Positions 492-44,391 of a stretch of 50,910 nt of DNA are shown piece by piece (position 1 is the stretch's first letter; each line of letters opens with the position of its first letter). The notes beneath the pieces were generated by a model. It was not told the origin of the DNA. It saw only the letters and a program-made list of their open reading frames with translations, and did no database searches. Position numbers and translations under genes: made by a program. Source of the stretch: a virus (lineage: Duplodnaviria; Caudoviricetes); the IMG/VR virus record IMGVR_UViG_3300034175_000007, positions 1 through 50,910 of that record; one strand, given 5' to 3'.

Positions 492-1121
492 TTAGCCCTT
501 GACGCTCGCGCCGGGCATGAACTGCTTGATGATAGTACCCAGATCAGTCTTGAAGCCGGCGCCGAGTGCTTCGAACTCCCAGTTGCCCGAAGGCTTCTTG
601 GTGAGCGACCCAAACTGAACAGCGTAGTTATCGCCGCCGTCTTCCTTCAGGTTGTACTTGACGATCTCCCGAGTGGGCTCGCCGGCCGCATCCATCTCGC
701 AGATGCGGATGAAGGCGTCCTGGACCTTCTTGAAGTTGTGACCCTTCTGAGCGGCTTCATGGATCGTCACGATGAAGGACAGCTCGACGATCTGCGAATC
801 GATCTTCGACAGATCCATCTGGATCCATTCATCGTCCTTCGTGGGAAGACCGGTCGGGCTGAGACCGTCGACACCATCGCGATTGTCTGGCGAATGGATG
901 AGACCCTTGCAAGGCGACTCGAGGTTGTTGTACCAGATGAAGTACGGAGGCGAGAGGAGTTCAGGATCGCCAGCCGCGTTGATACGGCAGGGGAACAGCG
1001 AAACGTCGAGATCATAGGCCTCCGGACTCGTCCAGCCCATGCCGACATAGAATCGGCTAACGTTGGGAGCAGCCTTGGTCAGATCAAACGTCTGACCCTT
1101 CGAAAGATCGAAATCAGCCAT
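492..1121 (-). CDS. terD: TerD-family tellurite/stress-response protein
   Basis: Motifs VGMGW, YDLDVSLF, YNNL, SPDNRDG, DDE, FIVTIHEA, WEFEALG; GAGGA RBS supports the MADF start at 1121 rather than 1184. Confidence 0.9.
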   Translation of the reverse strand: MADFDLSKGQTFDLTKAAPNVSRFYVGMGWTSPEAYDLDVSLFPCRINAAGDPELLSPPYFIWYNNLESPCKGLIHSPDNRDGVDGLSPTGLPTKDDEWIQMDLSKIDSQIVELSFIVTIHEAAQKGHNFKKVQDAFIRICEMDAAGEPTREIVKYNLKEDGGDNYAVQFGSLTKKPSGNWEFEALGAGFKTDLGTIIKQFMPGASVKG

Positions 1122-1257
1122 GTATGTATTCCTCGTGTGTGAAGCAGGCGTAGGAAGGAAGCGCCTGCTGAATAGACGAAACATTCGGATTTAGTTCCCT
1201 TTACCTTCCTTCCATGACTTTTATATCATGATAGGAAAGAAATGTCAATGGCGGTGA

Positions 1258-1866
1258 TTAGTTAAAGTAAGCGAGCAGCTCAGGGATGCCATGGTAGAAC
1301 ATCTTAGCTGCAATGATCAGGATGAACGCAAGACCGACCCATGCGATCCATGCCCAACGCTGGATCATATTCGAGACGAACTTGGCAGCAAAGGCCATGA
1401 TGGCGACCGACAGAACAAGACCGAAGACGAGTGCTTCCCAATGATCGCGGGCCGTGCCAGCGACAGCAAGGACGTTATCGATGCTCATAGAGAGATCAGC
1501 GACAGTGATAGCGATCATAGCCGATGCAAAGGTGCGTGGAGCCTTGGTTTCGGTAGAGTCGTTCAGATCACCGTCATCCTTGAGGTCCTTGTACATGTTG
1601 TACGCGACCCAGATAAGAGCGGCTGCACCGATGACCTGGATGCCAGGGATCATGAGCAGATAGACGGCGCCGAGCGAGAGGATGATTCGTGCAACAACAG
1701 CAATGATCATACCATACATGATGGCCTTATTGCGCTGCGCTTCTGGCAAACTGGCTGCCATAGCGCCGATGACTACCGCGTTATCACCAGACAACACGAT
1801 GTCGATAAGAATGACGCCGGCAAAGGCCAGCAACCCAGTGAGTAGCATTTCAGATATCCATTTCAA
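1258..1866 (-). CDS. terC: TerC/YjbE-family integral membrane protein
   Basis: IDIVLSGDNAVVI and ADLSMSIDNVLAVAG signatures; multiple TM helices. Confidence 0.92.
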   Translation of the reverse strand: MKWISEMLLTGLLAFAGVILIDIVLSGDNAVVIGAMAASLPEAQRNKAIMYGMIIAVVARIILSLGAVYLLMIPGIQVIGAAALIWVAYNMYKDLKDDGDLNDSTETKAPRTFASAMIAITVADLSMSIDNVLAVAGTARDHWEALVFGLVLSVAIMAFAAKFVSNMIQRWAWIAWVGLAFILIIAAKMFYHGIPELLAYFN

Positions 1867-1869
1867 AAA

Positions 1870-1893
1870 GGTGGGCGGACCGAAGCCCGCCCG
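1870..1893 (-). terminator. Probable intrinsic terminator/attenuator hairpin between the vWA gene and terC
   Basis: GGGCGG(GCTTCGGT)CCGCCC followed by TTTTT on the minus strand. Confidence 0.55.
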
Positions 1894-1899
1894 AGGTGT

Positions 1900-2667
1900 T
1901 TAGGCCGAAACCTTGGCCGGGAATCGCTTGATGAAAGCGAGCAGCTTGGGCGTGATCAGATCTGCATAGAGATCCGCATCCTTGGCGCCGAACTTGGCGG
2001 TGATGAAGCCGACGTTGTCGAACTCCTTATCCAGCTGCTTCAGCGTGTTGAACGCCGTCGACTGATTGGAGAAGCCGATGAACGCGAAGAAGATCGGATG
2101 AGCCGATGCACTACGCAGAGCAGCCTGGATGAGGCCGATCCGCTCGCTGTTGGGATCACCATCAGTCAGGACGAGAACCAGCGTCGGTTCCTTGGCGCCG
2201 CTAGCCGACTGCATCGGCACACGCTCCTGATACTCCTCGGTCTTCGAGCCGAAGCCCATGAAGCCCTTGACAGTACGAGTCTTGGTCACCGTCTCGTATG
2301 CGATTGCATCCGAACCATACCGGTTGTTCACGATATAGTTAATGAACGGTGAGTAGGACGTGCCGCCGCGTACATTAATGCGACGGTTGCGGACGAACGT
2401 CTTATAATCGTCCACGGTCCAGGTGCCGACGTAATCGACCTGATCGTCGAACTTGACGATATCGATCTCGTTGTTGTCATCGAACTTGATTGCGACACCA
2501 CCGAACTGATCAAGGATGGTCTGCATCGAACCATCAGCGATCTCATCGTCCATCGAACCCGAGATATCGAGTGCAGCCCAGACCGCCATGACAGGCGCAT
2601 CAGTTACACCCTTCTTGGCGAGCTCGAACGTGAACGTCTCTGCCTTTTTGGCAAGATCGAAGTCCAT
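1900..2667 (-). CDS. vWA domain protein (TerF-associated vWA type)
   Basis: MIDAS motif LDISGSM, GGTSY, VLTDGDP; ter-cluster context. Confidence 0.85.
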   Translation of the reverse strand: MDFDLAKKAETFTFELAKKGVTDAPVMAVWAALDISGSMDDEIADGSMQTILDQFGGVAIKFDDNNEIDIVKFDDQVDYVGTWTVDDYKTFVRNRRINVRGGTSYSPFINYIVNNRYGSDAIAYETVTKTRTVKGFMGFGSKTEEYQERVPMQSASGAKEPTLVLVLTDGDPNSERIGLIQAALRSASAHPIFFAFIGFSNQSTAFNTLKQLDKEFDNVGFITAKFGAKDADLYADLITPKLLAFIKRFPAKVSA

Positions 2668-2681
2668 AATCTTCCTTCCTT

Positions 2682-3722
2682 TTACTTAACGAGCGTAGCG
2701 GCGAGATCACGGCTCAGTTGCTCAAGCTGAGGCGCTTCCGAGCGGAGACGGAGTTTCATTTCAGTCATGATACGCTCCCTCTCAGCAAGCGAGGTGACGA
2801 TCGCGTTCTGATTATTCTGAAGCGTCGCCAATTCGATATTGGACGTAGTCAACGAGGTGGTGACTGCCGTCGTGGCTGCGCCAAGTGACGCCGCGTTCTT
2901 GTTGATCGCATCGTTGGTCATCGACTTCATAGCCGAACCAAACTCTGCGCCCTTCTTCTGTTCCATATTGATAATGAACAGAGCGAAGGTCGACTGGAGA
3001 GCAGGGATCATCGTGCTCTTCATGTCGTTCATGTCGATAGCCAGAAGCGCCGAGTTGGTCTTCATCTGATCGACCTGAGCTGCCTGCTGCTCGAACAGGA
3101 GGCGGAGACGGCTGAGATCATCAGCACGTTTACGACCCATAGCCGATGCCATCTTCCAGTCAGCGACCTTGGATGCTTCCATCGGGTTGGTCATGTCGAC
3201 GACTGGAATGTTAGCGTCCATCCAGTCTGCGCGTGCATAGATATCAGCGATCTCGATCTCGAGTGCATCGTAATCAGCCTTGAGCTGGATCTTGATGTTC
3301 TCGAGGTCTTGGATGCGACCCCGGAAGAGCGCCGTCTTCGTGTCGAGCTGGGTGATGAGCTGCTTGACGGAAGCATCGACCGTATTGAAGCGGTCCTTGA
3401 TGTTAACCGCCTTACCGAACAGCTTACCGAAGAAGCCCTTCGACTCCATATTCGTGGGGTCGTACCCCTTAGCCATCGACACGGTCTCCAGAAGGAGGGC
3501 TCCCATCTCGTCCATGTCCTTCGACTTCACCATGGCGGTGATCTTCGAAGTGGCAGCCGGGATCGAGGCCGTTGCCTTACCGCCGAAGTCGATGACCTCG
3601 GAAACAGTGATCGGCTTCATGGCAACGCCACTCGATCGAGTAACCGGAACGACCTGCCGAGCTGACTCGATAGGAATAACGTTCGGTGTACTGACTGTGC
3701 CGCCGAATAGTGGTTTAACCAT
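2682..3722 (-). CDS. telA: TelA / toxic anion resistance protein
   Basis: Coiled-coil with KGFFGKLFGK segment typical of TelA; ter-cluster context. Confidence 0.8.
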   Translation of the reverse strand: MVKPLFGGTVSTPNVIPIESARQVVPVTRSSGVAMKPITVSEVIDFGGKATASIPAATSKITAMVKSKDMDEMGALLLETVSMAKGYDPTNMESKGFFGKLFGKAVNIKDRFNTVDASVKQLITQLDTKTALFRGRIQDLENIKIQLKADYDALEIEIADIYARADWMDANIPVVDMTNPMEASKVADWKMASAMGRKRADDLSRLRLLFEQQAAQVDQMKTNSALLAIDMNDMKSTMIPALQSTFALFIINMEQKKGAEFGSAMKSMTNDAINKNAASLGAATTAVTTSLTTSNIELATLQNNQNAIVTSLAERERIMTEMKLRLRSEAPQLEQLSRDLAATLVK

Positions 3723-4534: not shown

Positions 4535-5138
4535 TGTGAACATACTTTCCGTAGTCTGGAGTTCCGTATTCCTGCTGACGAGCAGCGATGCGAGCACGAA
4601 GCTCACTGAACTCGATTGGACGATAGTCGATCTGTTCTACCGACACGTTGTAGTAGAGCGGATCTAGTTCTTTAATAAGACCGCTACTATAGATGTCGTT
4701 CTTATCGATGTTGAATCGATACATGTTATTAGCGTGGGTATGACCATGGACGTTAGTCTTCCAGCGCTGAGTGATCGACTCAGGATGCAGAGGAACGTGG
4801 GTGAGTGTTACGTCCTCTAGTACTCGAATGGCGTAGACCTCCTTGAAGTACTTGATGTACTCTCGGACTCCAAGGAGATCATGATTGCCGAGGATCAGAC
4901 GTTTTGATCCTTTGAGTCGAAGCATAGTTGTGATATGCTTCTTGCTCATAACTACGTCGCCAAGGTGGTAGACTTTATCGCCATCCTTGACTACTTCATT
5001 CCAGCGCTTAACCATCTCTTCATCCATCTCCTGCGCATTGGCGAAGGGACGAAGAGGAGTACCATCGTCACGTTTAAACTTCGTGCAGGTATTCTCGTGA
5101 CCAAAGTGCGTGTCAGAGATGAAGAAGGTGTTAGGCAT
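4524..5138 (-). CDS. Calcineurin-like metallophosphoesterase
   Basis: SDTHFGH, HLGD, GNHD, THVP, HGHTH motifs. Confidence 0.92.
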   Translation of the reverse strand: MPNTFFISDTHFGHENTCTKFKRDDGTPLRPFANAQEMDEEMVKRWNEVVKDGDKVYHLGDVVMSKKHITTMLRLKGSKRLILGNHDLLGVREYIKYFKEVYAIRVLEDVTLTHVPLHPESITQRWKTNVHGHTHANNMYRFNIDKNDIYSSGLIKELDPLYYNVSVEQIDYRPIEFSELRARIAARQQEYGTPDYGKYVHNAG

Positions 5139-5150
5139 TATTGTCTCTCA

Positions 5151-5855
5151 TTATCTATTGAAGCGGAGCAGATTGTAGCTCTTAAGAACTCCGCGCTTAT
5201 GTTCGGCAACTGGGTAGACTCCAATTGAAGTCAGCTGATTACCGATATCTGGTTCGCGGAACACGACATGAGGAGCGTTCCACGTCTCTAGTAGCTTTTG
5301 TACGTCGCGTAGAGCTTCCAGATCAGGCACACCACATACAGTGAAGTGTAGATCCTTAATCGCTTCAGGCGGAAGCTTATTGCCTAGTTCCAGAGCTACG
5401 TGAGCAGTCTGGACAAGCTGATACTCGTTGAAGATATCCTGACGAGTAAAGAAGTACGAGTAGTGACGAGCTATAGCACCGGTCTTACGTACCGCGTCGT
5501 AGATGGTGTTGTACTCTTCGATCTCTTCTGGCGTGAGGAGTTCATTCGAAGGTACACCAAGCATCAGAGCAGGAGACTTCTCCCACTTATAGGTGGTACG
5601 ATTATAACGCTCAATGAACGAAGAAGCATTGTTAACGCTCTTGTCCATCGCATTAAATGCAGGATGACCGTTAGCCAGCTTTACCTGACGAGTCACCGGC
5701 GTAAACGACCTACGAAGGATGCGCTTCGCGATAGTGATCTTGTCTGGCGCGTTAGTGGCTAGAGCGCGAAGGATGCCATATTGAATGACATTAACAGCAG
5801 TGATAGACTTGCTGTCTGCGAGCGACTTCCAAAGAGTCTTGATATTCTGTAGCAT
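5151..5855 (-). CDS. Protein with C-terminal peptidyl-tRNA hydrolase 2-like domain
   Basis: C-terminal QLVQTAHVALE...FREPDIGNQLTSIGVYP resembles phage Pth2-like proteins; own TTGACA promoter upstream. Confidence 0.7.
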   Translation of the reverse strand: MLQNIKTLWKSLADSKSITAVNVIQYGILRALATNAPDKITIAKRILRRSFTPVTRQVKLANGHPAFNAMDKSVNNASSFIERYNRTTYKWEKSPALMLGVPSNELLTPEEIEEYNTIYDAVRKTGAIARHYSYFFTRQDIFNEYQLVQTAHVALELGNKLPPEAIKDLHFTVCGVPDLEALRDVQKLLETWNAPHVVFREPDIGNQLTSIGVYPVAEHKRGVLKSYNLLRFNR

Positions 5856-5911
5856 ATATTATTCCTAGATCTTAATTCAAAAGTGAGTAAATGTCAATAA
5901 TAAAGTTTGGA

Positions 5912-5944
5912 TCAGGGAGGACCAGTGGAGTTCTACCGAAGCAT
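5912..5944 (-). other. Mini-ORF M-L-R-(TAG)-N-S-T-G-P-P-stop, translationally coupled to the upstream ORF (TAATG overlap)
   Basis: ATG CTT CGG TAG AAC TCC ACT GGT CCT CCC TGA read directly. Confidence 0.45.
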
Positions 5945-6201
5945 TACTGCTCTCCTCTGGTTATAGTTGCTACACCTTCAGCGATCGCGACAAGACAGTG
6001 CTTGAACTTGATGGCGCCTTTGGTATGCGAATTGTCAGGAGTCTCTTTAGTAGAGAAGCCGATCTTAGAATCTACGTGATCGACGTAGAAAGTCTGACCC
6101 TTAGCTTTGAGGACCCACATCGGGATCGAAGGATCAGATAGGTGTGCTTTGTTGAAGTGGAATACCGCTTCCTTGCAGACCTAGTTCGTAGTATCAGTCA
6201 T
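5944..6201 (-). CDS. Conserved-looking small phage protein with an in-frame TAG at codon 7 (readthrough candidate or pseudogene)
   Basis: AAGGA RBS then MTDTTN*VCKEAVFHFNKAHLSDPSIPMWVLKAKGQTFYVDHVDSKIGFSTKETPDNSHTKGAIKFK...; not in the ORF track. Confidence 0.7.
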
Positions 6202-6219
6202 GTTGTAGTCCTTCATAGT

Positions 6220-6378
6220 TTAGAAGAGCGCTAGTGCGCCTTTATATAGCGTAGCATCATTAGCTACGCCTTTGTAGACCGCGGAGCGAGACAAAGCCCC
6301 GCGGTAAACTCTTACAGTCGGTGGTACATAGCGATATGTACCTAGGGCGAGAGTGCCTAGTGGTTCTGCGCCGAGCAT
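6220..6378 (-). CDS. 52-aa hypothetical protein
   Basis: MLGAEPLGTLALGTYRYVPPTVRVYRG...YKG...YKGALALF; follows the structural gene directly. Confidence 0.5.
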   Translation of the reverse strand: MLGAEPLGTLALGTYRYVPPTVRVYRGALSRSAVYKGVANDATLYKGALALF

Positions 6379-6381
6379 CTA

Positions 6382-7467
6382 TTATCCGATAACTGTCGCA
6401 CGATATGCGTTAGCCGCTGGTGCGGTAGCAAAGGTGATAGTAACCGTGTTGATCGTCGCAGTATTAACATCGGCGATAACTACGTTACCAGCAGTGTCCT
6501 TTAGCTGAACGATCACATCAGTCGTACCAAGACTATGAGTTACCGTGATAGTAGTCGCAGTACCGTCGCCGATATTGGTTGAGTACTTACGAGCTACAAC
6601 GCCAGTATCGATAGCTACGCCTGATGCAGTAACCGAGATACCAGTGAACGCTTGGACAGATACAACCGAACCAGCAGCAGTAAGACCATTGCTGAACGTG
6701 TAGTTAGCTGAACCACCGAACTGGTTGATCGAGATGGCGGTAGAACCAAGGGTGATTAGACCCGTGTTCTCAACGCGCCACTGAGTCTTAAGATTCGCTG
6801 TACCTTCTTCGACGTACCAGAATGCGCCTGGGTTAATCTCACCATTAGCATCAGCATCAGTAGCCCTTGGCCATGCGCCTGCTGCGACAGTGTAGACACC
6901 GTTCTGCGATCCGGTCGACTGGTTCTTAACAAGAACACGATCACCGATATTAGCAGCAACACCATCGATAGTCTGAGTACCAGACAGTGTGATATTAGCC
7001 GTGGTAGCAAGACGAACTGAAGCCTTAGCATCGATACCAGCAGCTGCGTTAGCAACTAGTGACTGGGTCCATAGCATCGTTGCAGCATCCTGTGGATTGA
7101 CAGGATCGGCAAGGTTGATAGCACGTAGGTTGTTAAACGATACGTTAACAGTCGGAGCTGAGAACTGATCAAGACGGTATGACTGTACAGTCGTAGCAAG
7201 ATCAGAGATAGTCGATGCGAGCTGAGTGCCAGTGAAGTTTGCACGAGCTAGGTAGTAAGCGCCGTTCTGACCTGTTAGAAGATCGGAATCAGTAGCCTTT
7301 AGACCGAAGCCAGTCGAATTCTTAACGTAGAATCGATCAGCTGCTGTATCGAAATACATCTGACCGAGCGATGGAGAGCTTGGAGCCGAAGACAGAGGAT
7401 GCATGACAGCATTCTGAATCTGGTTCTTCTGAAAGTCATAACTGACTAGTACTTTAATTGATGCCAT
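6382..7467 (-). CDS. Virion structural protein (tail fibre/baseplate-associated)
   Basis: Thr/Ala/Gly-rich; KASVRLATTANITLSGTQTIDGV...GDRVLVKNQ...QNGVY motif common in phage tail proteins. Confidence 0.75.
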   Translation of the reverse strand: MASIKVLVSYDFQKNQIQNAVMHPLSSAPSSPSLGQMYFDTAADRFYVKNSTGFGLKATDSDLLTGQNGAYYLARANFTGTQLASTISDLATTVQSYRLDQFSAPTVNVSFNNLRAINLADPVNPQDAATMLWTQSLVANAAAGIDAKASVRLATTANITLSGTQTIDGVAANIGDRVLVKNQSTGSQNGVYTVAAGAWPRATDADANGEINPGAFWYVEEGTANLKTQWRVENTGLITLGSTAISINQFGGSANYTFSNGLTAAGSVVSVQAFTGISVTASGVAIDTGVVARKYSTNIGDGTATTITVTHSLGTTDVIVQLKDTAGNVVIADVNTATINTVTITFATAPAANAYRATVIG

Positions 7468-7470
7468 GTG

Positions 7471-7926
7471 TTATCCCCTCAGGACTGCGCTACCGCTGAA
7501 GGGTACGCCAAAGTCTATTTCTACTGTATTTATATCGAGGTATTTTACAGCAGCTACGACGACAGATCCATCTAGATCTAGGATGTCGACGTGGGGGATA
7601 GTACCGAGGTTATGTGGGATCAACCAGATCGCGTTAGCGTTAGTCACTTGATAGGTAAAGTAACGTAGACCCTGACCATCAGATCCAGCCGGACCCGGTT
7701 CGCCTTCAGGTCCTTGTGGACCAGGAGGTCCCGGTGCACCAGCGATAGCAGCGATAGTGCTGATCGCATACTGATCTTCAGCCGTCATGTTTTCGATAGT
7801 CAGTTCGACATCACCTGCATTAGGCTGCGATACTACTAGACTATAGACGTCACTGTCACCAACCACTTGGAGCTGATAGCTGTGTGGTAGTTCATTAAAG
7901 CCGATGACATTGTTACTTAGAGACAT
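7471..7926 (-). CDS. Virion protein with short collagen-like GXY repeat
   Basis: GAPGPPGPQGPEGEPGPAGSDGQG and C-terminal WLIPHNLG domain. Confidence 0.7.
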   Translation of the reverse strand: MSLSNNVIGFNELPHSYQLQVVGDSDVYSLVVSQPNAGDVELTIENMTAEDQYAISTIAAIAGAPGPPGPQGPEGEPGPAGSDGQGLRYFTYQVTNANAIWLIPHNLGTIPHVDILDLDGSVVVAAVKYLDINTVEIDFGVPFSGSAVLRG

Positions 7927-8225
7927 TAGATAACAGCCCTAGTAACTTTGACGTTGACCTTATAACGTAGAATGACGTTGGTTGGCGAAGTCAGTTTGAT
8001 ATGCATGACGTTGAAGCCAGGACTTAGATTCGATGTATCTGAGAGGGACATCGTAATAGCATCACCCTCAGTAGAAACTGTAAAGTCATGCTCAGAGTCA
8101 GTGTTCGCGGGCGATAGTAGCTTATAAGCTACGCTCCAGCCACCAAGCGAAACATCTTCCTGGTTCTTCTTCATCTTAAGAACGATGATCAGAGGATCAC
8201 CGATATTCACTGTTACGTTAGCCAT
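7926..8225 (-). CDS. Small beta-rich structural protein (BppU-N-like)
   Basis: Beta-strand pattern; GAGGAG RBS; TATAAGTA late-type promoter upstream. Confidence 0.5.
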   Translation of the reverse strand: MANVTVNIGDPLIIVLKMKKNQEDVSLGGWSVAYKLLSPANTDSEHDFTVSTEGDAITMSLSDTSNLSPGFNVMHIKLTSPTNVILRYKVNVKVTRAVI

Positions 8226-8279
8226 ACAATTACTCCTCTCTTTCGACTACTTATAGTCTACTGAAGAGGAGTATGCATG

Positions 8280-8355
8280 TGGTGTGCACTGTGGGGCTCG
8301 AACCCACGACCCGGAGATTTAGAGTCTCCTGCTCTACCATCTGAGCTAAGCACAC
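8280..8355 (-). tRNA. Amber suppressor tRNA (anticodon CTA)
   Basis: GTGTGCT-TA-GCTCAGATGGTAGAGC-A-GGAGA CT CTA AA TCTCC-GGGTC-GTGGG TTCGAGC CCCAC-AGTGCAC ACCA. Confidence 0.9.
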
Positions 8356-8362
8356 ATATTAG

Positions 8363-8524
8363 TTATAAGCCGTCAGCCTTGTAAGCATCTGGACAGACAT
8401 CGCAGTCTTTACCATCTACTGTGCCATATCCTCCATTGCATGTATTATTACCGCACTTATAGCAGATAATAACAGCACGCTCACAGAGTTCGCACCATTC
8501 TTTAGTGAAGACTTGTTCGGTCAA
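8363..8524 (-). CDS. 53-aa Cys-rich (Zn-binding) protein
   Basis: TTG start overlapping the upstream stop; CELC, CYKC, CDVC motifs. Confidence 0.55.
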   Translation of the reverse strand: MTEQVFTKEWCELCERAVIICYKCGNNTCNGGYGTVDGKDCDVCPDAYKADGL

Positions 8525-8769
8525 ATGCTGTTGGCTTTGATATACGCAGCAACAGTCGAAGGTGTAGTTGCATCACCAGTTACGATTGGACAACAGTCTG
8601 AACCGTATTCGCACTGGTCGATGATAACCTTCTTTTCGAGAGAAGAATTGAGAACATGAACTGCTTTGTTAGTAGCGAGATTACGAATCTCAGTGGCCAT
8701 GCTACCACGATACCAAGAATACTCTTGGCCGTCAACTACAATAGAGCGGGAGCCCTTACGCTTAGTCAT
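8521..8769 (-). CDS. Hypothetical protein
   Basis: MTKRKGSRSIVVDGQEYSWY with AAGGA RBS; the longer track ORF overlaps a tRNA. Confidence 0.6.
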   Translation of the reverse strand: MTKRKGSRSIVVDGQEYSWYRGSMATEIRNLATNKAVHVLNSSLEKKVIIDQCEYGSDCCPIVTGDATTPSTVAAYIKANSI

Positions 8770-10211: not shown

Positions 10212-11624
10212 TTAGCGGAAGTCGTACTTGTCTGCCATGATCGTCTTCAACATCACGCCCTCAGGAGTCATGTTCTTCAGATCTGCCGACAGGACAGACT
10301 TCATGATCGCTGGCGAGAAGCCCGAGATCAGAGCAGTGCCGGTCGTATCGTACTTAACTGGCGAGTTACCAGAAGCATTGATGTTCCAGAAGATAACCGC
10401 TGGTGGGGTGTACCCAGCACGGATATAATCGTTACGGATCATCTCGATAGCCGTAGCCGAAGGACTACGAATAGCAGCGTTGAACTGCATATCCGACATG
10501 ATGAGTAGTGCGCCTGGCATCTCGCTCTGTGGCACGCCGTTAGACACTGCCATCGTGAGGATCTTCTTAAGCGCTAGCTCAAGATTCGTGCTCATGTCCC
10601 AGTTAGAACGAGCCATGGTGTTGTAGCGCTCAGAGAGGCTACCACGAACCGTGACGAACTCTGTGCTGGTCGAGAACGTGAGGAACACATCCTTGAACTT
10701 GCCAGTGTTCTTGCCCGAACAATAGAGACCAAGTGAGATGGCGACATCGAGACAGGTGATGGCACTAGAACCGCCTGCCGAGCAGGTCATCGAACCCGAG
10801 ACGTCTACCAGAGGCAGAACATTCGCGTCACCGATGAAGTTAGGTAGTGCGTTCCACTGAGCATCGACTAGCTGCGTATCCCTAGAGCTGCGCAGGTTCT
10901 TGATGATGTCGTAAGGATATACTGCCGCAGCATTTACCTTTACGGTCTTATCACCCTTGACCAGCTTCTCCTTGAAGGTCGTGAAAGCAATAGGCGCCTG
11001 CTTAGCAAAGGCCTTAGTGTAACGCGACATAGCGAGAGATGGGACGTGGCTGAAGTTGATGCGCTCAAATTCACGTGCACACATCTGAGTCTCAACGACA
11101 TTCGTCAGAGAAACCAGAGTCTTACGATAGAACTTTGGCGACCAACCGAGGAACTTACGAAGCTCCACAGCAGTTGCACCCTTACGTGGCATCCACTTTG
11201 CAGCCAGGCCGTTCTTAGACTCTAGCGCATTACGAATGATGCTGAACGCGAGGAACTTAACCTCTGGGTTCGTGAAGATGAGAAGGTCGTCGAAACGGCC
11301 GAGCTCAGGAACACGATTCAGAAGATTCGTCTCGAGCAGATAGCGAGGGTTTGACTTCTCAAGCTGGAGCAGGATGTCACGGAAGAGCTTACGCTCACCG
11401 GCACCACCACGGATATCACGACCCCAGAGGGCGATACGGATGGCGTATTCAGGATTCTCTGCTAGAGCCTGAGCGAATAGATTGGTAATGTCCTTACCAC
11501 GAGAAGCGCCGAGCTGACCGAATAGATCGGTGTTAGCGCGATTGGTAGACGTATATGCTGCCATACCATTGGTCGTGGTGGTACGAACAGGAGTGCCGCG
11601 TACGGCTGATGCGAAAGTCGTCAT
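10212..11624 (-). CDS. DUF2828-family Ro60/TROVE-like helical-repeat plus vWA protein
   Basis: TTTTNGM, DLF, RDIRGGAGER, PELGRFDDL, LAAKWMPR, C-terminal MIDAS DVSGSM, SDMQF, FWN, LISGFSP. Confidence 0.85.
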   Translation of the reverse strand: MTTFASAVRGTPVRTTTTNGMAAYTSTNRANTDLFGQLGASRGKDITNLFAQALAENPEYAIRIALWGRDIRGGAGERKLFRDILLQLEKSNPRYLLETNLLNRVPELGRFDDLLIFTNPEVKFLAFSIIRNALESKNGLAAKWMPRKGATAVELRKFLGWSPKFYRKTLVSLTNVVETQMCAREFERINFSHVPSLAMSRYTKAFAKQAPIAFTTFKEKLVKGDKTVKVNAAAVYPYDIIKNLRSSRDTQLVDAQWNALPNFIGDANVLPLVDVSGSMTCSAGGSSAITCLDVAISLGLYCSGKNTGKFKDVFLTFSTSTEFVTVRGSLSERYNTMARSNWDMSTNLELALKKILTMAVSNGVPQSEMPGALLIMSDMQFNAAIRSPSATAIEMIRNDYIRAGYTPPAVIFWNINASGNSPVKYDTTGTALISGFSPAIMKSVLSADLKNMTPEGVMLKTIMADKYDFR

Positions 11625-16947: not shown

Positions 16948-17415
16948 TTATGCTGGACGCCAGCTCTCCTTCAAACCCTCAACATGGACGGCTGTATACG
17001 TGATCGTCATACTCGGATAGACAGTCGGCAGCTCTCCCTCATAGTCATACACAACTGTGATGTGAGGAATGTAATCAGGATAATCAGACGTAGCTCCGAG
17101 CTTCTGCATATCTGCGTACAGATCTTGCAGTTGTTCAGACTCTACGTGAGCGACCAGGAACTTGTTCTGCTCGTCTCCGAGCAGCTTCCATCCGACGATC
17201 TTACCTGAGAAGTACTTACCAAACTGATAGTCTTCTACTGCAGGGACAGGTGTCTTGCTGTAGACGAGCGTGGTGTGTAGATCTTTTGTTGGCACAACAT
17301 TAGAGAGGGTGAGGTTATCGCCCACCCACTCTGTTAGTTTCTTCGCGTCAGCATCACATGGTATAAGACTGACGTAAGTTCCGTGCTCATGCTTACAGAA
17401 CTGTTTGAAGGTCAT
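16948..17415 (-). CDS. acb1: 2H phosphoesterase, Acb1 / T4 gp57B-like (anti-CBASS nuclease candidate)
   Basis: Two HxT motifs (LHTTLVYS, YIPHITVVY) and N-terminal GTYV. Confidence 0.78.
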   Translation of the reverse strand: MTFKQFCKHEHGTYVSLIPCDADAKKLTEWVGDNLTLSNVVPTKDLHTTLVYSKTPVPAVEDYQFGKYFSGKIVGWKLLGDEQNKFLVAHVESEQLQDLYADMQKLGATSDYPDYIPHITVVYDYEGELPTVYPSMTITYTAVHVEGLKESWRPA

Positions 17416-40286: not shown

Positions 40287-40362
40287 TGGTATCCGTGGAG
40301 AGACTCGAACCCTCACTGTACACGTTTTGAGTGTGCTGCCTCTACCGTTGGGCCACACGGAC
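40287..40362 (-). tRNA. tRNA-Leu(CAA), short variable arm
   Basis: CT-CAA-AA loop, CCA. Confidence 0.85.
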
Positions 40363-40560: not shown

Positions 40561-40636
40561 TGGTACCTACGACGAGACTCGAACTCGCACTGAATACAAC
40601 CTCAGTGTATTGCCTCTGCCGTTGGGCTACGTAGGC
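40561..40636 (-). tRNA. tRNA-Leu(GAG), short variable arm
   Basis: CT-GAG-GT loop, CCA. Confidence 0.85.
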
Positions 40637-44315: not shown

Positions 44316-44391
44316 TGGTACCCGCTGTGGGACTTGAACCCACAAATTTAGAATTTTAAGTTCCTTGCCTCTGCCATTCGGCTAAGCGGGC
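44316..44391 (-). tRNA. tRNA-Leu(TAA), short variable arm
   Basis: CT-TAA-AA loop, CCA. Confidence 0.85.

Follow-up and report, generated by a model that had tools for sequence, protein, structure and literature searches.

We describe a phage module in which early in-frame stop codons, here called gates, stand near the starts of two gene families and in leader mini-ORFs, and in which a tRNA encoded by the phage has the matching anticodon. The gates are very probably real and selected, and their dependence on the tRNA is indicated by a joint switch of codon and anticodon between related modules. The module was found in the window, that is, the whole stretch of 50,910 nt analysed here, which is part of a T4-like phage genome (gp43, UvsX, DnaB, NrdAB; 33 tRNAs). 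It comprises a tRNA with anticodon CUA, a small gene interrupted by TAG (gene X), a TAG-containing leader and a gene for a protein with a Pth2 fold (Table 1).

Table 1. Features of the module in the window
Feature	Position	Strand	Remarks
Pth2-fold gene	5151-5855	-	234 aa; no internal TAG; 56 nt behind the leader
Predicted hairpin	5863-5918	-	Pro-stop end of the leader (5918-5910) with the region around the next gene's ribosome-binding site (5871-5863); -8.5 kcal/mol, p=0.05
Sigma-70-like site in the spacer	5869-5897	-	TTGACA-17-TAAGAT; 5 sites found vs 5.4 expected in shuffles
Leader mini-ORF	5912-5944	-	M-L-R-amber-N-S-T-G-P-P-TGA; TAG at 5933-5935; start overlaps the stop of gene X (TAATG)
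Gene X	5944-6201	-	85 codons; TAG is codon 7 (6181-6183)
Amber-suppressor-type tRNA, anticodon CUA	8280-8355	-	ARAGORN, 76 nt; short variable loop

The module in a genome of standard code

The first-pass annotation of the window had proposed a well-formed CUA tRNA, an 85-codon ORF with TAG at codon 7 and its next ATG 21 codons further on, and a second TAG-containing mini-ORF overlapping the first. All were found as placed, the tRNA being called independently by ARAGORN. Gene X begins with ATG at 6201 (an alternative in-frame ATG lies at 6216), has 78 codons after the TAG and ends with TAA at 5944-5946. It is the sole minus-strand ORF of the window that combines a ribosome-binding site (RBS), an ATG and an early TAG with a recognisable protein. 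Four genes without in-frame TAG lie between the tRNA and gene X (6220-8225, minus strand), and three of them are virion-like (head decoration, collagen repeat).

In a crude gene call of the minus strand (n=77 ORFs), we counted 55 TAA, 17 TGA and 5 TAG stops. The core genes in the window are intact, its own major structural region lying mostly outside the record. These counts agree with the earlier view that recoding is not genome-wide. With its own CUA suppressor-type tRNA the window has one feature of code 15, but the hallmark of that code, a multitude of in-frame TAGs within long structural or core genes, was not found: in the gene X loci only 10/335 long ORFs are joinable across a TAG. The annotation of the cultured Rhizobium phage RHph_I1_18 shows uninterrupted baseplate and tail genes, and TAG makes up 3/69 stops. 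We conclude that the phage genomes carrying the module are not recoded and use the standard code.

The sequencing run with the best coverage of the window was labelled biocrust, and none of the runs matched was an RNA dataset carrying the window sequence. The TAG of gene X was covered by a single run, which is possibly the source of the window DNA and hence not independent; the leader TAG was covered by a second run and did not differ there. A sequencing error is instead ruled out by the conservation of the TAG described below.

The tRNA has a G1-C72 pair, A73 and a CU-CUA-AA loop, and its CCA end is encoded. We rejected the pyrrolysine label given by ARAGORN since, measured against the architecture of tRNA-Pyl, it is a common class I tRNA of 76 nt with A73. 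No pyl genes (pylS/pylBCD) were detected among 47 window ORFs scanned in Pfam. The 124 distinct CUA tRNAs from gene X loci had G1 in 117 cases, A73 in 105 and GCG/CGC-A in 66; the D stem and anticodon stem were variable. According to the accessible part of a recent preprint (bioRxiv 10.1101/2025.10.30.685624), 28 of 29 phage CUA tRNAs tested in E. coli extracts gave a residue of Gln mass, which, as its authors caution, is nearly isobaric with Lys. The residue inserted at the gates would most likely be Gln and possibly Lys. Database proteins with Gln at the gate position were discarded as evidence, because DNA encoding such N-termini always has TAG and these entries are probably code-15 gene calls.

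Conservation of the early stop

We scanned homologous DNA with a pattern blind to the gate codon. TAG was present in 34/34 gene X matches of the viral scan. The metagenome scan gave 119 matches, namely 107 true homologues, all with TAG (107/107), and 12 unrelated genes. Together, the scans found TAG in 141/141 true homologues and a sense codon in 0/141, counts that are biased to gates at codon 3 and to one related freshwater group and do not represent independent events. One locus with TGA at the pattern position (L236) was set aside, as it is not homologous to gene X. The first-pass annotation had read the sequence after the TAG as a conserved phage protein, and had named a sequencing error or a recent pseudogene as possible refutations; homologues were found, and neither refutation is compatible with a TAG kept across them.

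The 288 loci surveyed contained 194 distinct X cores. A clean early TAG was seen in 161 of these, an early TAG with a later Met in 3 and an internal TAG in 2. Among the 28 cores without a TAG of their own, 22 had an early stop in an adjacent Pth2-like gene, and four more were accounted for by an extended N-terminus, a leader or the insertion of a nuclease gene. In total, 192/194 distinct X genes come with a gate, be it their own, that of the neighbouring Pth2-like gene or that of a leader; the other two were a locus with tRNA, X and Pth2-like gene in which no gate was seen (L150) and a 2.2-kb contig (L170). The position of the TAG in gene X varied from codon 2 to codon 7, at 6-20 codons ahead of the conserved core, which indicates that the stop itself and not a residue position is conserved. 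The base after it was A in 147/161 cases. Between the TAG and an invariant H-F-N motif, no Met occurred in the 161 clean cases, and no ATG, GTG or TTG occurred in the window.

Among 700 early-stop candidates in the X loci, the only real families were X itself (159 loci) and the Pth2-like genes (33 loci). RHph_I1_18 was the only close cultured match; its gene X is unannotated, interrupted by TAG and ends just ahead of a CUA tRNA. At one locus (L174, 5286-6228) X is split, its gated N-terminal part continuing into a homing-endonuclease-like ORF, behind which lies a second copy of X.

The proteins encoded by the module

The X protein was modelled as beta-rich with pLDDT 92.9. It had no family match in Pfam, PHROGs or NCBIfam, no match in the ESM Atlas with a score of 0.9 or above, and only WW-domain fragments among PDB sequences. 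Comparison of the model with the PDB gave no match by Foldseek and a best Z of 3.7 by VIA, with scattered OB-like rows; the model matched only uncharacterised viral proteins. Its fold resembles part of DUF2061 proteins and part of the phiRSL1 APS kinase (BFVD rows 1, 4 and 7). Fusion forms of X also occur, in which the added part is a Pth2-like domain, a basic helical domain or a C-terminal extension. Natural Pth2-like/X fusions are P0162 and P0188, and P0157 and P0172 have the Pth2-like C-terminal part. These fusions tie X to the Pth2-like protein, a putative binding partner. We considered whether the extension at the C-terminus of the long X forms might represent a degenerate half of Pth2 and rejected this (hhalign probability 11%).

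The 234-aa product of the gene behind the leader, which the first-pass annotation had called Pth2-like, consists of a helical N-terminal domain and a C-terminal domain of Pth2 fold (residues ~128-230; model pLDDT 95). Foldseek matched this domain to archaeal and human Pth2 with E values of 5e-5 to 4e-4, and VIA aligned 103 residues with 1wn2 (Z 13.2, rmsd 2.1). The protein itself had no Pfam, PHROG or NCBIfam match. A single-sequence search with it among the loci gave no match, whereas an alignment-based search found homologues. Its Pth2-like relatives narrowly pass the Pfam PTH2 threshold and score far under the NCBIfam Pth2 cut-offs. In canonical Pth2 the Lys of the K-x-A-A-Q motif has a catalytic role; this Lys (before Q-x-x-H) is absent from the subfamily, in which E-P-D also replaces D-A-G. 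Because of these scores and the missing Lys, hydrolase activity of the Pth2-fold protein is not certain. Many Pth2-like genes that stand alone lack both the TAG and the leader.

Co-occurrence of gates and suppressor tRNAs

Of the 103 distinct X genes whose loci reach 9 kb, 86 had a CUA tRNA in the same locus. A search of the whole records for the other 17, mostly fragments, added 5 ARAGORN-confirmed CUA tRNAs and 7 unconfirmed pattern matches and left 5 with none. The co-occurrence of TAG and CUA tRNA, proposed at the outset as a check, was thus seen for 91/103 well-covered X genes in a sample made up mostly of related freshwater phages, whose counts are not independent events. We also surveyed the reverse direction, in which 120 pattern matches yielded 56 CUA tRNAs, 35 of them with at least 8 kb of flank. 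Over half of these loci (20/35, one opposite-strand leader match having been dropped) contained a gate, and 15/35 had none within 6 kb.

In XacN1 and RAS14, M-K-amber opens an HD-like/Pth2-like gene, whose HD assignment we presume from its motif. In Phosso, codon 4 of Pth2 is TAG and two CUA tRNAs are present. Atu_ph07, on the other hand, has TGA as codon 7 of the orthologous gene, a UCA tRNA, which also appears in the available part of the published genome paper (PMC6102473), and no CUA match. It is this joint switch of codon and anticodon that points to dependence of the gate on the tRNA. Thirteen cultured phages were compared for a Pth2 gate and a CUA tRNA. The Pth2 genes of phiM12, phiCbK, Xoo-sp13 and SCTP-2 are ungated, with no CUA match. 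Neither gate nor CUA match was found in Aeromonas 65, Kikimora, Munch and Lak-A1 with a tRNA pattern that can miss tRNAs. Pseudomonas phage Astolliot (L448) has a CUA tRNA, and no X or gated Pth2-like gene was found in it; an X homologue was likewise not found in XacN1, RAS14, Myrna and Catera.

A4, Catera and Myrna were ambiguous for gating. The Pth2-like genes of the cluster C mycobacteriophages Catera (L429, ~1471-1480) and Myrna (L430, ~780-790) begin with ATG/GTG-TAG-GTG, and in both the RBS spacing favours the second start. In Myrna, a CUA tRNA annotated as Ser lies directly downstream.

The leader mini-ORF and its predicted hairpin

The second mini-ORF is kept in the closest viral relative (L004), where it reads M-R-amber-N-S-T-G-P-P-stop; the changes there are synonymous and the TAATG overlap is retained. 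Among distinct mini-ORFs with a Pro-Pro-stop end, the internal stop was TAG in 25 (about 4 of which look spurious), TAA in 2 and TGA in 1. The Pro-Pro codons are mixed among leaders, and R-x-P-P, seen in some relatives only, is absent from the window leader (T-G-P-P). Each of the four closest full-length homologues of the Pth2-fold gene follows such a leader at a distance of 65-76 nt and lies within 1 kb of a CUA tRNA, and three of them have no X nearby. At least three further small-protein families stand behind amber leaders as well (L117 6509-6922, L337, L384, L001 8950-9333), and one of them resembles the helical domain that Phosso and Atu_ph07 carry as a fusion to X.

The end of the leader is predicted to pair with the RBS region of the gene that follows. 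We examined 28 leaders with a clear next gene and obtained such pairing at p<=0.05 against shuffles for 22, the other 6 giving no significant pairing; the leader's own RBS ranked first or second as partner in 17/28. In L483 the leader ends with TGA and the opposite arm of the hairpin has the matching change. The window hairpin is weak, with a gain in predicted RBS accessibility only from 0.53 to 0.66. Accessibility improved in 16/28 leaders and reversed in none, in a comparison that lacks a shuffle control and is weaker than the pairing test. On these predictions, the mini-ORF is a putative attenuator leader for the Pth2-fold gene.

Attenuation of the Rho/rut type was considered and rejected, since the spacers are AU-rich with no consistent C-over-G bias; pairing with the RBS is the better fit. 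A search for intrinsic terminators in 5100-8600 gave none. The promoter-like site in the spacer, found about as often as in shuffles, may be due to chance or be an independent promoter, in which case it could bypass the leader.

A model of the module and its alternatives

The proposal of the first-pass annotation, that expression of these ORFs depends on the phage tRNA, gains support from comparison, with the TAG conserved, the CUA tRNA co-occurring and the genome of standard code. On balance we favour a model in which the CUA tRNA competes with release factor 1 at the UAG gates, X and the Pth2-fold protein being made only when readthrough wins, so that the module would sense failing termination and turn on rescue proteins. 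Present and conserved in the sequences are the UAG gates, the tRNA and the standard code. A host synthetase would charge the tRNA, with Gln or perhaps Lys. Readthrough at codon 7 would then give full-length X, and otherwise a 6-residue peptide would be released. A ribosome past the leader TAG is predicted to pause at Pro-Pro-stop, melt the hairpin and free the RBS of the Pth2-fold gene, whose product, with X as a putative partner, would free peptides from stalled or dropped-off peptidyl-tRNA. The ratio of suppressor to release factor would climb as the phage tRNA builds up or as release factor becomes scarce. A sensor of this competition is the simplest reading because the only conserved targets found are the module's own genes. 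We suggest, much more tentatively, that the suppressor tRNA is chiefly the sensing arm of a self-contained circuit that measures release-factor activity in the infected cell. Faltering termination at UAG (UGA in Atu_ph07), for example through host defence, would turn on X and the Pth2-fold enzyme as a substitute means of peptide release. If true, most orphan suppressor tRNAs of phages with the standard code would be accounted for.

Rather unlikely, but worth considering, is a timing or positive-feedback switch, in which the two gated proteins either boost suppression, through tRNA recycling or activation or through an RF1 block, or are harmful early, and the gates stay shut until the tRNA has accumulated. 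More tRNA would indeed open the gates, as fits a late or self-amplifying switch, and the short peptidyl-tRNAs arising at early UAG codons would need a Pth to free the suppressor. Suppressor-timed late expression has, in the accessible part of the work, been proposed for recoded phages (Borges et al., bioRxiv 10.1101/2021.08.26.457843). However, no gated structural or lysis gene was seen in the loci examined, and the 267 UGA stops beside the UCA tRNA of Atu_ph07, as given in the available text (PMC6102473), argue against runaway suppression.

The tRNA could instead be a weapon against UAG-ending genes of the host or of rival phages, with the gated genes as antidote, which we consider improbable. 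The gates have the polarity that an antidote requires, and TAG stops are few in the window and in RHph_I1_18, as counted above, and in XacN1, with 18 amber stops according to the accessible part of its description (PMC5852040). Low TAG use is, however, usual for phages of such kind, and Atu_ph07 uses UGA heavily and yet carries the UGA version of the module. Least probable by a wide margin is that the TAGs are neutral passengers or early recoding, or that X is made by re-initiation without readthrough. Suppressor acquisition has been proposed to come before recoding (Borges et al., accessible part), and a few long ORFs in X loci are joinable across a TAG. Drift, though, would have left sense codons in some homologues, and none was found; the stops are also limited to two families and to leaders. 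Re-initiation is opposed by the missing start codons between the TAG and H-F-N. We regard these neutral readings as already refuted for the most part, and the sensor as the preferred one.

Relation to known systems

In the autoregulation of RF2 (prfB), an early in-frame UGA senses release-factor competition. The module likewise has an early in-frame stop that would gauge this competition and control translation factors; the bypass in prfB is a frameshift, unlike the suppressor tRNA proposed here, and the products here are the Pth2-fold protein and X. Stalling at C-terminal prolines was reportedly described by Hayes et al. in 2002. In our model such stalling rests on the RAPP (PMC10951233) and TnaC (PMC11890864) work, to the extent that these papers were accessible. 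SecM, the ApdA/ApdP RAPP peptides and TnaC likewise have a short upstream ORF ending in prolines, on which a stalled ribosome bares the next RBS. According to the accessible text, these arrest peptides respond to a metabolite or a pulling force, whereas the input here would come from a co-encoded tRNA that reads through an internal UAG. In contrast to RAPP motifs, Pro-Pro abuts the stop in our leaders and Arg at -4 occurs in some only.

Recoded phages (code 15 or 4) likewise encode their own suppressor tRNA, and their in-frame stops have been proposed to be regulatory (Borges et al.). As far as the accessible part goes, their stops are spread across late structural and lysis genes, whereas here the code is standard, with 1-3 gates per module, close to gene starts and within the leaders of genes related to translation. 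Pth2-fold proteins of large phages have been proposed to act in ribosome rescue (Iyer et al., PMC7824862); the accessible text of that paper contains neither 'suppressor' nor 'stop codon', and the subfamily described here has an F-x-E-P-D motif. The module resembles both recoding-based control and arrest-peptide attenuation and is a member of neither as defined. No description of it was found in the literature covered, from which subscription journals were largely absent.

In the available parts of the respective genome papers, no target was found by the authors for the suppressor tRNA of XacN1 (PMC5852040) and no specific target was named for that of Atu_ph07 (PMC6102473). The module offers candidate targets, namely the M-K-amber gene of XacN1 and the TGA-gated Pth2 of Atu_ph07. 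Annotated starts of gated Pth2-like genes often miss the N-terminus, and annotation routinely misses or truncates gated genes. If the model is true, the module would be a natural gene switch with stop-codon readthrough as its input, and the cultured carriers RHph_I1_18 and Phosso make it testable.

Other features of the window

A gene cluster with TerD, TerC, vWA-TerF-like and TelA lies at 492-3722 and a gene of the anti-CBASS Acb1 family at 16948-17415, both on the minus strand. A DUF2828/DUF7788 gene is found near the CUA tRNA (10212-11624, minus strand), and look-alikes occur within ~1.5 kb of amber leaders at L337 and L386. Three Leu tRNAs of the minus strand, with anticodons CAA (40287-40362), GAG (40561-40636) and TAA (44316-44391), are without the long variable arm and start with G1-U72; one normal long-arm tRNA-Leu is present alongside. 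The CAA tRNA was read by ARAGORN as Phe-AAA.
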